A DNA stretch of 64,000 nt from Coraliomargarita sp. GTDB taxonomy: Bacteria; Verrucomicrobiota; Verrucomicrobiia; Opitutales; Coraliomargaritaceae. Shown here piece after piece: positions 11,726 to 17,391 of this stretch. Position 1 is the first letter of the stretch; each line of letters opens with the position of its first letter. The translations under genes and the position numbers were made by a program. The DNA lies in contig OZ244160.1 of assembly GCA_965216325.1 (NCBI GenBank), positions 1,728,001-1,792,000 of the forward strand, read 5' to 3'. Under the pieces are notes generated by a model. It searched no databases and had not been told where the DNA came from. It saw only the letters and a program-made list of their open reading frames with translations.

Positions 11726-13294
11726 CTAGCCTTCGACACGACGACGCGTATTGGCTAACATCGTCAATACGAGCATGGCTGCGCTAACAGCCACAAACCA
11801 ATCCCCGTGGCGGGTGTAAAAGCTTTTCCGGCGAAGCCAGTCTGCGTATTGAAACACGGAATACGTGCCCCCTCCTTGAAAGTAGACACTGCCCTCTTCC
11901 ACAAGAACCTCTCGAATCGTTCCATACGCATCGATCCAGCCACTCCAGCCAGCGTTGCCACAGCGCATGACTGGGCGACGATTCTCCACTGCACGTAAGA
12001 CCGAGTGCGCGGCATGCTGCGGAGCGCCGCCCTCTTCGCCATACCATGCATTATTGGTTGCGACGAAAAACAACTGAGCTCCGGCCACGACCGAGTCCCG
12101 CGCCAATCCGGCATAGGTATCTTCATAACATACCAGGGAGCCCACCTTCCAGGTAGCTTCGCCAATCGTCAGCGGAATGATTCCGGGATCCTCACCTGGC
12201 ACAAAATCGCCGCCGACCGGAACCACTTTATCAATAAAACCAAAACCCTTCGGCACATATTCACCAAAGGGAACCAGCTCGCGCTTCGTGTAATCGTCAT
12301 CACTCAGTCCAGCTCCTGGTTCCACCAGATAGACGCCATTCGACCAGAACTCAGTCTCTGGATAAAACGCTAAATTCCCCATCAAGATCGGCTTCTCGAT
12401 CTCATCCACCAGAGCTTCTACACGATACTGCATCTCAGAGTAGCCCTTCACCGGCCAAGGCGTCGACGCCTCCGGCCATAGCAATAAATCACTCTCCATG
12501 ATCGCGACCCAACGAGTCAATCGCTCCAGTGTCTCTAAATTCTCCAACTCCAACTGCGCATCCCATTTCAGCTCTGGCGTAATGTAGGGCTGCACAACTC
12601 CCGCGGTAAACATGGGCACCGTAGAATTCGGAGCAGGCAGGCTTCTAAAGAACACCGTGATGCACAGCCCCAGACAGCCCATCGCCACATAGAGATCCGG
12701 ACTAAACCAGCCCGTCCATACCTTGCGCTCTCTACGGACCGCACGATTCCGCAGCGTGTGTGCCACGCAAAAACTAAACAGCACCAGCATGAAGGATATA
12801 CCATAGGCACCCGTCCACGCAGCAATCTGCAGCACAACCGGACGCTGCCACTGGCTCAGCGACAGCGGCGCCCATGGAAAGCCCCAAAGAAACCAATTGC
12901 GCGCCCACTCCAACACAACCCAGCCACCCGCCAGACCGAAAAAGGCGAACAGCCGCACCGCAAACGAAGCACTCGCAAAGCGCGGCAGCACCCAGCGCAC
13001 CAGCAGCACCCAAGCAGCAAAAATACCGGCCATGATCGCCGAAAGCGCAAGCGTGCCAAAAACAGTCACATGCCGGAGCCAAATCAGAATCACCAACCAA
13101 CTTACCCAGCCTGTGCCGAAACCAACCAAGGCAGCAGTCTTCCAGCTCGGACGCGTGTACAGCCAGAGCAACAGCGGCACAAAGGCAACGTAGGCACCCT
13201 CGGAAAACTCAAACGGCGGTATCGACAACACCCAAAGCAGTGCTGTCAGCACTCCAGAAAATACCCCCCAGTATGTCGAAAATCCACGCATCAT
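11726..13294 (-). CDS. lnt: Apolipoprotein N-acyltransferase
   Basis: GFPWAPL, nitrilase-fold WPE, KRELVPFGEYVP, CYED, TNNAWYG, RAVENRR. Confidence 0.95.
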   Translation of the reverse strand: MMRGFSTYWGVFSGVLTALLWVLSIPPFEFSEGAYVAFVPLLLWLYTRPSWKTAALVGFGTGWVSWLVILIWLRHVTVFGTLALSAIMAGIFAAWVLLVRWVLPRFASASFAVRLFAFFGLAGGWVVLEWARNWFLWGFPWAPLSLSQWQRPVVLQIAAWTGAYGISFMLVLFSFCVAHTLRNRAVRRERKVWTGWFSPDLYVAMGCLGLCITVFFRSLPAPNSTVPMFTAGVVQPYITPELKWDAQLELENLETLERLTRWVAIMESDLLLWPEASTPWPVKGYSEMQYRVEALVDEIEKPILMGNLAFYPETEFWSNGVYLVEPGAGLSDDDYTKRELVPFGEYVPKGFGFIDKVVPVGGDFVPGEDPGIIPLTIGEATWKVGSLVCYEDTYAGLARDSVVAGAQLFFVATNNAWYGEEGGAPQHAAHSVLRAVENRRPVMRCGNAGWSGWIDAYGTIREVLVEEGSVYFQGGGTYSVFQYADWLRRKSFYTRHGDWFVAVSAAMLVLTMLANTRRRVEG

Positions 13295-13297
13295 ATA

Positions 13298-14206
13298 CTA
13301 TTTCCAAAGCGGATGTAGCTTCCAGTCCGATGGCAGCCCCATGTCCCTCACAGGAATATCTGGATATTCATCAAAAAGCTGCTCGACTCGTTCGCACCAT
13401 CGACTCGTAGGAGATATTTGCGTCAGAAACGCATTGCAGATCATCAAAAGAATACCAACACGGTCATTAACTAAAAGCTTCTTGCCATCTTCATTCTTAA
13501 GATGCCAGTGCGGATACTTGTTCCTTTGAGGTAAACTTGGAGCATAACCTAAAACACGGTTCCAAAGCCGTGAATGGTGTGCACAAATATTACGAGCGGC
13601 ATACAAACTTCTCAACCAACTCAAGAGCAGTTCATCGGCCATATCAAAGTGCGCAGCCACTTTTGAGGCAATTGCGCCGTCCACACCTTTAAGCAAAGTT
13701 AAAAGACTCCCCATGCTCATTAACTCTGAAGCCATCCAAACCGGTAGGTTCCGATGCGTATTACCGTATTTCTTGAAGAAGTGTCTCTTAAACGCCTCTT
13801 TACTCCGATTGGTTTCAGTTAGCAAACTGTCACGCCAATCAATGTAGTCACCGATCTTCAGGTTCGGGAAATGCCCCTCCTCGCAATGGCCAAATGCCCC
13901 ATGAGCGTGAGAAAAGTAGTAAGTCAATTGCGTCCGAACCGAGACTTCAACACGTTCAATAGCATCAAGAAACAATACGCGTAAACGACGATCAAAACAA
14001 TAACGCCTCCAAATAGTCTCCAATGTTGTGCCCTCCATGTAGCTCTCTGAATCACACTGACGAAAGGGATATAAATAGCCTGAAAATCGGTAATAGCTAA
14101 CAGCACGGAGTCGCTTAATCAGCTCTTGCTTATCTGCAATAAGACCACGCTGAATCAATCGCTCTGCTTGCTCTTCAAAACTCAGTGCTTTCTTTGGATA
14201 ATTCAT
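13298..14206 (-). CDS. Abi family (Abi_2 / AbiF-AbiD-like) HEPN RNase
   Basis: KALSFEEQ...RGL, SYYRFSGY, FDRRLR...IERVEVSVR, LPVWM, HEPN RNICAHHSRLWN; more AT-rich than its neighbours. Confidence 0.9.
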   Translation of the reverse strand: MNYPKKALSFEEQAERLIQRGLIADKQELIKRLRAVSYYRFSGYLYPFRQCDSESYMEGTTLETIWRRYCFDRRLRVLFLDAIERVEVSVRTQLTYYFSHAHGAFGHCEEGHFPNLKIGDYIDWRDSLLTETNRSKEAFKRHFFKKYGNTHRNLPVWMASELMSMGSLLTLLKGVDGAIASKVAAHFDMADELLLSWLRSLYAARNICAHHSRLWNRVLGYAPSLPQRNKYPHWHLKNEDGKKLLVNDRVGILLMICNAFLTQISPTSRWCERVEQLFDEYPDIPVRDMGLPSDWKLHPLWK

Positions 14207-14245
14207 TTGAATTCTAGTCCTTCAAATCCCGGAAGATTAGGACAC

Positions 14246-14295
14246 AAAAAAACCCCCCGAATTACGCATTCATTTAGAGGCGCGGGGGGCATGCT
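14246..14295 (-). ncRNA. Putative abiF-type antitoxin RNA / leader terminator
   Basis: Minus strand GCCCCCCG-N23-CGGGGGG-TTTTTTT about 40 nt upstream of the Abi ATG. Confidence 0.55.
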
Positions 14296-14379
14296 AGAGT
14301 TTAAGGTGCGAATCCTATGCCCGTTTTCAAGCATCGATTCTAAATATTTTTCTAACTAAAATCTGCCGAGCTATAGAAC

Positions 14380-17300
14380 TTATTTCTGCACGAGCTCCCA
14401 ACCATCGTTGAGGATCATGCTTTCAGCCTTCTTAAACTTGACCTGCTTTTCTTCGCTACCCTTGCGGAGGGTCACGGTTTCATTGCGACCGATCTTTGGA
14501 AGCTCACGGCGAACCGGCTCCACCTTCGGCAACTCGACTTGCTTTTGTTGCTGAGCCTGCTGCGGTGCTGCCTGCGCAGCCGCAGCAGCCATTGCGCCCG
14601 GTTGCGCACTGCCAGTCCCCGGACCCGCTACCTGCACTTGCTGAGCCAGTCGGCCTAACATGTTTTGGAAAGCCTCTTGGTTTGTCGCAGAGCGGAAAAT
14701 CGTGTGACAAATCTCCGTGCGGACATTGGTCATCAACTCTTCGAAGAACTTATACGCCTCACTCTTGTATTCGTTGAGTGGGTCCTTCTGACCGTAGCTG
14801 CGCAAGTTCACACTACGACGCAACTCTTCCATCTCAGTGAGGTGGTCCTGCCAACGGCGATCGAGCGAACGAATCACCACATAGCGCTCCAGGCCAGTGA
14901 GTGCTTCGCGATCTTCAAACTCTTCACGCGCGGCGTAGGCGTCCTTGATCTTGCTTACGATCAGTTCATGGCGCGCATTGATATCCAAGCCATCCAACTC
15001 TTCGACCTTCAAAGCAATCGGGAAGTAGGCATTCACCCATCCGATAAACTCCTCCTTGGCTTCACCTTCATCACCGTCGATGGCTTCCAGACGCTCTGCG
15101 GTTTCCTCTTCGATCATTTCGTAAACGATGTCGATCGGTGTGTCGGACTGAATCGCCTCATTACGGATGCCGTAGATCACCTCACGCTGTGTGTTCAACA
15201 CGTCGTCAAACTGAAGCAGGCGCTTACGAATGGAGAAGTTCTGTTGTTCGACCTTCTTCTGTGCGTTTTCAATCGACCAATTTAGCATGCCGTGCTCAAG
15301 CTCCTCGCCCTCGCTCATCGACTTCTCAAGCACACGTGAAATTGGCCCAGCATTGGCGAACAAGCGCATCAAGTCGTCTTCCAAAGAAACAAAGAACTTG
15401 GACATACCCGGGTCACCCTGACGTGCACAACGACCACGTAGCTGACGGTCGATACGACGTGACTCGTGACGCTCAGTGCCAATCACAAATAGACCGCCAA
15501 GCTCAGGCACACCTTCGCCGAGCTTAATGTCGGTGCCACGACCCGCCATATTGGTTGCAATCGTAACCGCACGTTTCTGACCAGCGCGGGCAACAATTTC
15601 CGCTTCCTGTTCGTGGAACTTCGCATTCAACACGCTGTGGGTAATCTTAGCGCCCTTGAGGACATGGCTCAGCGCTTCAGATGCTTCAACCGATGCGGTG
15701 CCCACCAGAACCGGTTGGCCCTTGCCGTGCGCCTCTTCGATTTCGCGCAACACCGCTTTAAACTTCTCACGACGCGTCTTATACACCACGTCGTTCTGAT
15801 CGATGCGCAGGCACGGCTTGTTCGTCGGAATGATCATTACCGACAGGCCATAAATTTCGTTAAACTCTGCAGCTTCGGTTTCCGCGGTGCCGGTCATACC
15901 CGCAATCTTCTCATACATTCGGAAGTAGTTCTGAATCGTAACCGTCGCGTACGTCTTGGTCTCCTTCTCGATGGTGCAGTTTTCCTTCGCTTCCACGGCT
16001 TGGTGGAGGCCATCCGACCAACGGCGGCCCGGCATCACACGACCCGTGTTTTGGTCGACAATGTTTACCTTGCCCTGCTGGACCACGTATTCCTTGTCCT
16101 TCTCATAAAGGCTGTAAGCACGGAGCAACTGACTGATGCAGTGGATGCGCTCGCTGGTCTGTTGAAATACCTCCTCAGCCGCCATCTTTTGCTTTTGGCG
16201 CTCTTCGGCGGCCACCTCTTCTTGCTTATCGATCTCGATAAACTGCGTCGGCAGATCAGGAAGCATGAAGGCGTCCGGATCATTCGGGCTGAGCAGGTTG
16301 CGCCCCTTTTCGGTAAGGTCGGCAGCCTGGTTCTTTTCTTCGATTACGTAAAAGAGTTCTTCTTTGAGAGCATAGCGCTGCTTCTTGTTGAAGTCGCTAT
16401 TCATCTCGAGGTCGTATTTGTCTAAGGCACGGCGAATGCGAACCACTTCGTTGAGCTGCATGAGCTTGTCGTTCTTCGGCATGCCCAGCTTGACTTGAAA
16501 CAGCTTGGAGATCGCAGCGGTTTCTTTATCAAGGTCGTCGCCAGCAGACTGGAGTTCCTTCTCGGCCTCCGCAGCAAGCTTGTTACAGAAGGACTGCTGC
16601 TTGGAAACCAAGTTCTGGATGCTCGGCTTGTGCTGCATGAATGGCAGCGGGTTGTCATCCTGCATCGGACCGGAAATGATCAGCGGCGTGCGCGCTTCGT
16701 CGACGAGCACGGAGTCCACTTCGTCAATAATACAGAAGAAGTGATCGCGCTGCACCTGGTCCGCCTTGCTGCTGGCCATGCCGTTATCGCGCAAGTAATC
16801 AAAGCCAAACTCCGAGGCAGTGCCGTAAGTGATGTTGCGGCCATACATCTCGCGGCGCGTAGCCGGATCCATGCTGTTCTGAATACAGCCAACAGTCAGA
16901 CCGAGGAACTGGAACAAGTGGCCCATCCACTCGGAGTCACGACGAGCGAGGTAATCATTGACCGTGACCAACTGTACATTGCGCCCGGAAAGCGCATTCA
17001 AATAGATCGGGCAGGTGGAAACCAGCGTCTTACCTTCACCGGTCGCCATTTCCGCGATACGCTTTTCATGTAGGGCAATACCGCCGAGCAGCTGCACATC
17101 GTAGTGCACCATTTCCCAAGGAAGCTGGTGGTCACAGACCTCGTAGCTATTACCACACATACGGCGAGCCGCGTTCTTCACCGTCGCAAAGGCTTCCGGC
17201 AACAGATCGTCGAGGCTTTCACCCTTCTCGAAACGCTCCATATATTCCGCGGTTTTTGCACGGAGCTGCTCATCACTGAGCGACTTGAATTCTTCGTCGT

Positions 17301-17391
17301 AGGCGTTGATACGCGCAATGATCGGTTCGCACTTCTTCTGATACTTCGTGTAGTGACGACCGGAGAACTTCTTGAGGATCTTAGAGATCAT
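14380..17391 (-). CDS. secA: Preprotein translocase ATPase SecA
   Basis: [58 protein letters not shown]. Confidence 0.98.

Follow-up and report, generated by a model that had tools for sequence, protein, structure and literature searches.

A putative AbiF/AbiFr toxin-antitoxin cassette with a divergent abiF-motif RNA between secA and lnt in Coraliomargarita

AbiF proteins paired with AbiFr RNAs have been proposed as ancestors of Cas13, and the study of one such pair, PbAbiF-AbiFr, is said to be that of Zilberzwige-Tal et al. (Cell 2025). Here we describe a putative member of this kind, an abiF gene with an upstream hairpin RNA, in a 64,000-nucleotide stretch of Coraliomargarita sp. DNA (contig OZ244160.1, positions 1,728,001 to 1,792,000), which we call the window. 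AbiF and AbiFr are reported to form a type III-like toxin-antitoxin system in which a noncoding RNA encoded upstream of the toxin obstructs the HEPN RNase at its active site (PMC13064643, PMC12737573, PMC12373285). The PbAbiF-AbiFr pair of a Prevotellaceae bacterium (PDB 8VZ6) is described in all three of these sources, two of which (PMC12737573 and PMC12373285) give 8VZ6 as PbAbiF complexed with its noncoding RNA, and substitution of R210/H215 is reported to inactivate PbAbiF (PMC12373285). For AbiFCd-RCd22 of the Clostridioides difficile phi027 prophage, expression of the toxin by read-through has been mapped experimentally (PMC12373285), and for the lactococcal AbiD/F group the upstream RNA is reported as required (PMC13064643). 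The genes of the family, Abi_2, are described mainly from Bacillota and Pseudomonadota (PMC12373285). In the window, the minus strand carries, in order, secA, a 173-nt spacer, an open reading frame of 302 amino acids, and lnt. A preliminary description made from the letters alone had called this locus an RNA-antitoxin AbiF module, and its placements of the open reading frame, the RNICAH motif, two hairpins, a U7 tract, and an AAGGA element were all found again where it had put them. The locus matches the published AbiF/AbiFr and AbiFCd/RCd22 systems, and in our judgment it is highly probable that it is a self-contained module of that type, a type III-like toxin-antitoxin pair serving as an abortive-infection anti-phage system.

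With PbAbiF-AbiFr the Coraliomargarita locus shares full-length protein homology, the R-N-x-C-x-H motif, and one cis-encoded upstream hairpin RNA per gene, but it belongs to another phylum and its protein similarity is distant (residues 3 to 302 align to positions 7 to 300 of 8vz6_A, "Abi family protein," with an E value of 3.3e-35 and 125 bits). With AbiFCd-RCd22 it has in common an Abi_2 toxin, the Rfam motif RF03085 (abiF) upstream, and a promoter-RNA-terminator-gene layout (PMC12373285). RCd22 is reported to be about 100 to 130 nt long, with two abiF motifs, both of them needed, and a separate terminator hairpin, whereas a single motif in the window doubles as the terminator stem of a predicted RNA of about 50 nt; moreover, AbiFCd lies in a prophage lysis module (PMC12373285), whereas the window copy lies in a housekeeping operon. 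The lactococcal AbiD, AbiD1, and AbiF proteins belong to the same Pfam and PADLOC family but are plasmid-borne and have demonstrated phage phenotypes, whereas the window copy is chromosomal and, as in the comparison with PbAbiF, known from sequence. In ToxIN and AbiQ, too, an RNase is restrained by an RNA that is encoded in cis and overproduced by way of a terminator, but the ToxN fold is unrelated to AbiF, and the tandem antitoxin repeats typical of ToxIN, and not of AbiF, are absent from the window, where our covariance model R1 (below) found one match in the leader and genome. Cas13 shares the HEPN fold and has two HEPN domains, in contrast to the one Abi_2 domain of the 302-amino-acid protein; no CRISPR array was noticed in the stretches of the window that were read, no repeat-finder search having been made, and the flanking genes are secA and lnt.

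The AbiF protein and its upstream hairpin

The 302-amino-acid protein matched Pfam Abi_2 (PF07751) over profile positions 3 to 184 of 184 (E value of 3e-49; 168.3 bits against a cut-off of 25.6), and PADLOC assigned it to AbiD (2.6e-65). Its RxxxxH motif, RNICAH, previously described as intact, aligned with RNSCCH at positions 210 to 215 of 8vz6_A and hence with the catalytic R and H of PbAbiF. Residues R205, N206, C208, A209, H210, and H211 were invariant in our protein alignment A2, which also served as the query for retrieving homologous loci; a single-protein query gave no relative. The nearest named AbiF relatives came mostly from metagenome-assembled genomes of Verrucomicrobiota and the Planctomycetes-Verrucomicrobia-Chlamydiae (PVC) group, and the window's gene is the sole Abi_2 gene of a 3.06-Mb single-contig genome. 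We conclude that, by its domain and catalytic motif, the protein is a putative HEPN RNase toxin of the AbiF type.

Upstream of abiF, on the same strand, a hairpin of the form CCCCCCG-N23-CGGGGGG is followed by U7 (14246-14289). It is composed of an outer stem (CCCCCC/GGGGGG), an inner stem (CGC/GCG), the loop CUCUAAAUGAAU, and a 3′ internal loop, UAAUUC, and its predicted folding energy of −19.0 kcal/mol (z score of −2.4) was equaled by 3 of 200 shuffled sequences, a stability greater than chance would give. A search with the Rfam abiF model, which the preliminary description had proposed as a check, was favorable in alignment and rank and unfavorable in score: RF03085 matched the hairpin end to end (model positions 1 to 37) with zero non-standard pairs, but at 30.4 bits (E value of 0.0062 in 2.1 kb) against a gathering cut-off of 37 bits. 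Genome-wide (3.06 Mb), the hairpin was nonetheless the best of three RF03085 matches, the other two scoring 16.6 bits, and it precedes the genome's only Abi_2 gene. It shares with RF03085 the two-stem architecture, the GCCUCU loop start, the asymmetric 3′ internal loop, the trailing U, and the place upstream of abiF. It differs in a G at motif position 7 and a C before the 3′ stem, which allow a seventh pair, in a loop longer by 1 nt, in its sub-cut-off score, and in its stem, CCCCCC/GGGGGG instead of the usual CCCGCC/GGCGGG, which is one of the compensatory changes described below.

Homologous loci connect the window's hairpin to higher-scoring members of the motif. At the same place in genomes of the same family, RF03085 scored 49.8 bits in L010 and 42.7 bits in L008, both above the cut-off, and 31.0 bits in L006, and it gave no match at loci L007 and L009. 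An RF03085 match at an E value of ≤1 was present in 12 of the 20 nearest named loci, in each case on the strand of the gene and with its end 26 to 98 nt ahead of the protein match. Only L030, with 37.1 bits, attained the cut-off, although R1 found all 20. The window's RNA is thus linked to the above-cut-off hairpins of L008, L010, and L030 by graded similarity.

Model R1 was seeded with 13 hairpins, from the window and 12 loci, leaving out three with a 7-nt internal loop that MAFFT had shifted, and was searched over the window and 85 homologous loci. The window's hairpin scored 60.0 bits. At an E value of ≤0.01, R1 matched upstream on the same strand in 58 of the 85 loci, and a search with the filters off of the 18 loci that had no upstream match added L029 and L049, for 60 of 85 in total and 48 of the 73 that were not in the seed. 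Weaker matches at the expected place (E values of 0.014 to 8.7) in 18 further loci brought the total to 78 of 85, and tandem motifs were found only in L063 and G266. The resulting alignment was fitted to the model and had 74 rows (62 distinct), among them four from the reverse strand and a weak match from elsewhere in the window; 98.7% of its cells were paired and 8 of 9 pairs had changes on both sides; none of 500 shuffles and no slid control came close. We conclude from structure, covariation, and position that the hairpin is a divergent copy of the RF03085 abiF motif and that it falls short only of Rfam's operational score. Covariation and a fixed upstream position agree with the antitoxin RNA proposed in the preliminary description, which had named as its own undoing a hairpin with no conservation upstream of homologs, a mere secA terminator; what was found instead is a hairpin conserved upstream of its gene in 60 of 85 loci and following that gene into other places.

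The association was also seen across the phylum. Abi_2 was present in 26 of 301 sampled genomes, that of the window included, and, as a blind test, R1 was run with strict filters (E value of ≤0.01) on 25 Abi_2-positive genomes, 25 Abi_2-negative genomes, and the window's genome. An R1 match was found in 15 of the 25 positive genomes versus 1 of the 25 negative ones, and in 13 of the positive genomes it lay directly upstream of Abi_2 on the same strand.

Variation among the hairpins was noted in passing. In many abiF motifs (L027, L028, L037, L015, and L054, for example), GCCUCU is followed by an additional apical stem that varies in length and often ends in a GNRA or UUCG-type tetraloop; the window's hairpin lacks this stem. 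RNA sub-variants (GGCUAU...CCUCAAAC and CUCGGACGG...) follow the protein clades, which suggests cognate RNA-protein pairs. In L010 (G019:C2), the 49.8-bit motif precedes just a 167-amino-acid frame matching AbiF residues 203 to 301, and the toxin there is possibly truncated or divergent. Two orphan motifs, L099 (G311:C1:2304187-2304223) and L101 (G014:C127:6043-6079), have promoter-like boxes and U tracts with no Abi_2 open reading frame downstream and may be antitoxin-only remnants; the L099 hairpin is identical to that preceding the L008 AbiF gene. One abiF-like hairpin (L100/L104, G311:C1:1172155-1173889; 32 bits with R1), with a TTGACG box and a U tract, lies 27 nt upstream of a 557-amino-acid Schlafen gene (AlbA_2 and HATPase_c_4) instead of AbiF. 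A recurrent association of the hairpin with Schlafen/AlbA_2 was rejected, as the G311 locus alone among 19 homologue loci has the hairpin, and the pairing is probably a one-off rearrangement.

Predicted transcription through the hairpin

Conserved sequences upstream of the hairpin, numbered here backwards from its first nucleotide, resemble a promoter. Of 56 distinct upstream sequences, 48 have a TTG that begins at −44 to −39, compared with a background of 5.1 on average per 8-nt window; the window's −35-like box (Table 1) lies at this family position, and CTTGAAAAC of the −35-like region is kept in L006. A family −10-like block follows at −18 to −13, with T at −13 in 47 of 56 sequences. The hairpin is immediately preceded by a 6-nt 5′ tail of the family pattern A-N-C-A-N-A, with A at −6 in 54 of 56 sequences, at −3 in 55, and at −1 in 49; the window has G at −1, as do 7 of the 56. 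Because the A at −6 lies 7 nt past the −10 block, we infer that transcription starts there.

Downstream of the hairpin, the sequence resembles a terminator that abiF transcription would have to cross. The 10 nt counted from the last model position contained 6 to 9 T in all 58 loci (57 homologues and the window), and the basal stem of the motif itself abuts the U tract, the common arrangement in the loci surveyed. In 56 of 57 loci, 18 to 57 nt separate the hairpin from the assigned start codon, and L083, with 138 nt, is the exception; in this survey L089 had no assignable start, and L010, a partial protein match, was left out. The window has 45 nt from the end of the hairpin to the ATG, which is too short for a separate promoter, and abiF is therefore presumably transcribed through the hairpin and U7. 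The conserved U tract and the lack of promoter room thus speak for the read-through expression that the preliminary description had suggested, and the order of RNA gene, terminator, and toxin gene in one unit is, as sequence architecture, the type III layout. A crude open reading frame survey of 83 loci gave no pattern of coupling to a co-directional downstream gene: 40 downstream genes were co-directional (13 within 50 nt), 34 were convergent, and 9 loci had none.

Two further features of the upstream region were observed. In the cassettes of the PVC clade (L006, L011-L015, L017, L030, and the window), the −10 box reads ..(C/T)CTT rather than TAnnnT, as in GATCTT, ACTCTT, TTCCTT, ATCCTT, and CACCTT, whereas TATAAT-like boxes occupy this position in proteobacterial cassettes; the ..CTT boxes hint at what may be a differing promoter preference of the hosts. 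In the window, positions 14300 to 14340 of the minus strand, between the secA stop and the abiF hairpin, can form a 12-pair hairpin (GAAUC-G-AUGCUUG-AAAA-CGGGCAU-AG-GAUUC) that overlaps the −35-like box, has no U tract, and is not kept in L006.

The module would work as follows. From the weak putative promoter, TTGAAA-16-CACCTT, transcription would begin about 6 nt ahead of the hairpin. The majority of transcripts would stop at the U7 tract, yielding an excess of a small RNA of about 50 nt, and the remaining minority, continuing across the 45-nt leader, would allow AbiF to be translated. AbiF would be a HEPN RNase acting as a dimer, and, by analogy with PbAbiF/AbiFr and AbiFCd/RCd22, the small RNA would bind it and occupy its active site, with the 3′ internal loop UAAUUC as the likely plug. 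Poisoning would be expected only when the balance of RNA to protein is upset, for example by phage infection.

Alternative readings of the hairpin and leader

Several observations weigh against such a module. Besides the sub-cut-off Rfam score and the contrast of a single motif of about 50 nt with the two required motifs of RCd22, no upstream hairpin was found in 7 of the 85 homologous loci (L009, L045, L053, L066, L071, L075, and L082), and in L053 the sole R1 match lies downstream of the gene. In the phylum sample, 10 of the 25 Abi_2-positive genomes had no R1 match under the strict filters, and 8 of 23 R1 matches sat away from Abi_2 genes. The promoter is also poor: the window's −10 box agrees with TATAAT at 2 of 6 positions and is shifted by 1 nt relative to that of the family, and a sigma-70 promoter scan of the leader called no promoter (the promoter/terminator scan also missed the hairpin, whose loop exceeds its rule). 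Because the −10 box is poor and the scan silent, the RNA may be made mainly by read-through from secA.

The same weak promoter could be taken to mean that the hairpin and U7 are merely a cis-acting stop, terminating secA and attenuating abiF with no antitoxin role in trans. A GC stem does run directly into U7 91 nt past the secA stop, and the C. difficile RNA is reported to act in cis too, by premature termination (PMC12373285). A plain terminator, however, would not keep the GCCUCU loop, the 3′ internal loop, and the 5′ ANCANA across phyla or accompany the gene to unrelated surroundings, as in L006, and in the 8VZ6 structure the homologous RNA is found in complex with the protein (PMC12737573); we consider such a stop quite unlikely. 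The poor −10 box, the RNA score below the Rfam cut-off, and the solitary copy with no defence neighbours might instead mark an inactive relic in which the toxin or RNA no longer functions, and yet the open reading frame is full length against 8VZ6 and retains all catalytic residues invariant in the family, and the hairpin has no mismatched pair and scores 60 bits with the model of its own clade, so decay is very improbable. Nor is a small protein a credible antitoxin. The preliminary description had found no protein antitoxin, and indeed homology to related genomes ends about 6 nt past the secA stop, the AbiF stop lies 3 nt before lnt, and the leader's only other frame is a nonconserved 43-amino-acid open reading frame (14203..14334, minus strand). 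That frame runs open over the hairpin and ends on the ATG of abiF (ATGA), and hairpin-spanning frames exist in 13 of 16 close loci, 9 of them ending on the abiF start codon, as might befit a small protein antitoxin or leader peptide. There is no such frame in L006, L016, or L019, however; the N termini of the peptides are unrelated and their lengths very different, two of the three frames that pass through the hairpin just happen to contain no stop codon, and the 43-amino-acid frame has its start codon upstream of the predicted transcription start. Moreover, the frame that crosses the hairpin is not the same in all loci, two different ones being used, and the constraint is therefore on the RNA. 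We rejected the peptide, to which we assign almost no likelihood.

A different kind of control, by a second hairpin over the Shine-Dalgarno-like AAGGA (14218-14222), had been proposed in the preliminary description as the second half of a double hairpin. Under this proposal, which would add to the AbiF/AbiFr module, read-through transcripts would be poorly translated until the hairpin opened. The hairpin (GUCCUAAUCU-UCCG-GGAUU-UGA-AGGAC) is present in the minimum-energy fold of the leader, where the Shine-Dalgarno-like GAAGGA has a predicted pairing probability of 0.68. Its energy of −8.1 kcal/mol, however, corresponds to a z score of −1.2, with 24 of 200 shuffles folding equally well, and the leader as a whole has a z score of −0.7. 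The equivalent L006 hairpin is a different one, GUGCA-CGAAUUC-UGCAC, which leaves AAGGAG free (pairing probability of 0.32). Over 50 leaders, surveyed without the near-identical duplicates L056, L058, L060, L032, L033, L035, and L048 and without L089, which has no assignable start codon, the median z score was −0.01, and 6 of 50 fell below −2; a Shine-Dalgarno-like element was found in 40 of the 50, with a mean pairing probability of 0.45 and with values of at least 0.7 in 7 of 40. The claim of double hairpin control did not hold, then, for want of conservation in L006 and of a trend over the 50 leaders; sequestration of the Shine-Dalgarno element is improbable, and the second hairpin is probably incidental.

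A cassette between secA and lnt

The abiF unit appears to have been inserted as a whole. BLAST of window positions 12700 to 14900 against same-genus genomes gave homology that ended at query positions 520 to 527 and resumed at 1616 to 1634, that is, it broke about 6 nt past the secA stop and restarted about 9 nt into lnt. In G002 and G003, secA and lnt are adjacent with a short spacer only, and G005 is similar; a roughly 1.09-kb insertion is therefore indicated here. Homologues of AbiF were absent from all 3 same-genus genomes and present in 4 of the 18 genomes of the same family. GC content was 0.43 to 0.46 over positions 13200 to 14399, versus 0.51 to 0.60 in the flanks. Thus both the AT-richer gene and the insertion between secA and lnt that had been read from the letters alone were borne out, the flanks by Pfam and the insertion by the adjacent secA and lnt of same-genus genomes. 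Apart from a promoter-like box, the RNA, and the gene with its leader, the insert contains nothing; neither an integrase or transposase nor a clear duplication of the target was observed at the insertion. A 75%-identical copy, L006, has the whole unit between ruvB and a SpoU methylase gene, and the cassette therefore moves as a unit. We conclude from these breakpoints and comparisons that a mobile cassette of about 1.09 kb is inserted between secA and lnt.

Table 1. Positions in the window of the cassette, its parts, and its flanking genes
Feature	Position	Strand	Basis
secA, upstream flank outside the cassette	14380..17391	−	Pfam SecA_DEAD (1.1e-115) and further SecA domains
Inserted cassette (promoter, RNA, leader, abiF), about 1.09 kb, replacing the short secA-lnt spacer	~13286..14373	−	BLAST breakpoints and GC content
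−35-like box TTGAAA, 41 nt upstream of the hairpin	14325..14330	−	Family TTG position; putative promoter
Weak −10-like box CACCTT, 16 nt past the −35-like box	14303..14308	−	Position logo; putative, weak
Conserved 5′ tail AGCAUG	14290..14295	−	Family A-N-C-A-N-A; predicted start at A14295
abiF-motif hairpin, candidate antitoxin RNA AbiFr	14252..14289	−	RF03085, own model R1, covariation, folding
U7 tract abutting the stem, putative terminator tail	14246..14252	−	Read directly; termination predicted
Second hairpin covering the Shine-Dalgarno-like AAGGA	14217..14243	−	Predicted fold; probably incidental
abiF, intact 302-amino-acid Abi_2/AbiD-F HEPN protein	13298..14206	−	Pfam, PADLOC, and 8vz6_A match
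HEPN catalytic motif R205-N-I-C-A-H210	13577..13594	−	Alignment to 8vz6_A
lnt, downstream flank	11726..13294	−	Pfam LNT_N and CN_hydrolase

The cassette appears as a mobile unit of promoter, 6-nt tail, hairpin, U tract, short leader, and gene that keep their places nearly to the nucleotide, and it can land inside a housekeeping operon. Protein family, RNA motif, and layout make it a new addition to the published type III systems of the AbiF/AbiFr kind, and its RNA is a PVC-type variant that goes undetected at the Rfam threshold. A clade centered on PVC and Verrucomicrobiota carries this compact one-hairpin version with an RNA below the Rfam cut-off, and standard annotation would therefore label the gene a "solo" Abi protein. 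The locus is useful for annotation and for the choice of minimal AbiF-RNA pairs; the known mechanism is unchanged.

The position of the cassette raises the question of its relation to lnt. The lnt gene is single copy (one LNT_N match in the genome) and starts 3 nt beyond the abiF stop, with its ribosome-binding site within the last abiF codons, and the antitoxin hairpin with U7 is now the only terminator-like element ahead of it. If lnt has no internal promoter, its transcription must cross the antitoxin terminator and abiF. Because lnt is single copy and begins so close to the abiF stop, the defence module could have become entrenched, in an addiction-like manner, in what looks, in relatives, like a housekeeping secA-lnt operon; we offer this as a tentative and on balance unlikely reading. 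Were it true, the toxin mRNA would be constitutive and control would lie wholly at the RNA-protein step, and the host would forfeit an envelope-biogenesis gene if the cassette were lost precisely or termination became tighter.

In one same-genus genome (L091, G001:C21, positions 2020 to 2800), the same secA-lnt spacer holds another, unlike insert, about 780 bp long. It encodes a 185-amino-acid IS200-like Y1 transposase (Pfam Y1_Tnp, 3.4e-6) flanked by palindromic repeats (gtaggagagg...cctctcctac) and looks like an element of the repetitive extragenic palindrome/REP-associated tyrosine transposase (REP/RAYT) type. With a second insert at the same site, the secA-lnt junction therefore appears to be an insertion hot spot in the genus.

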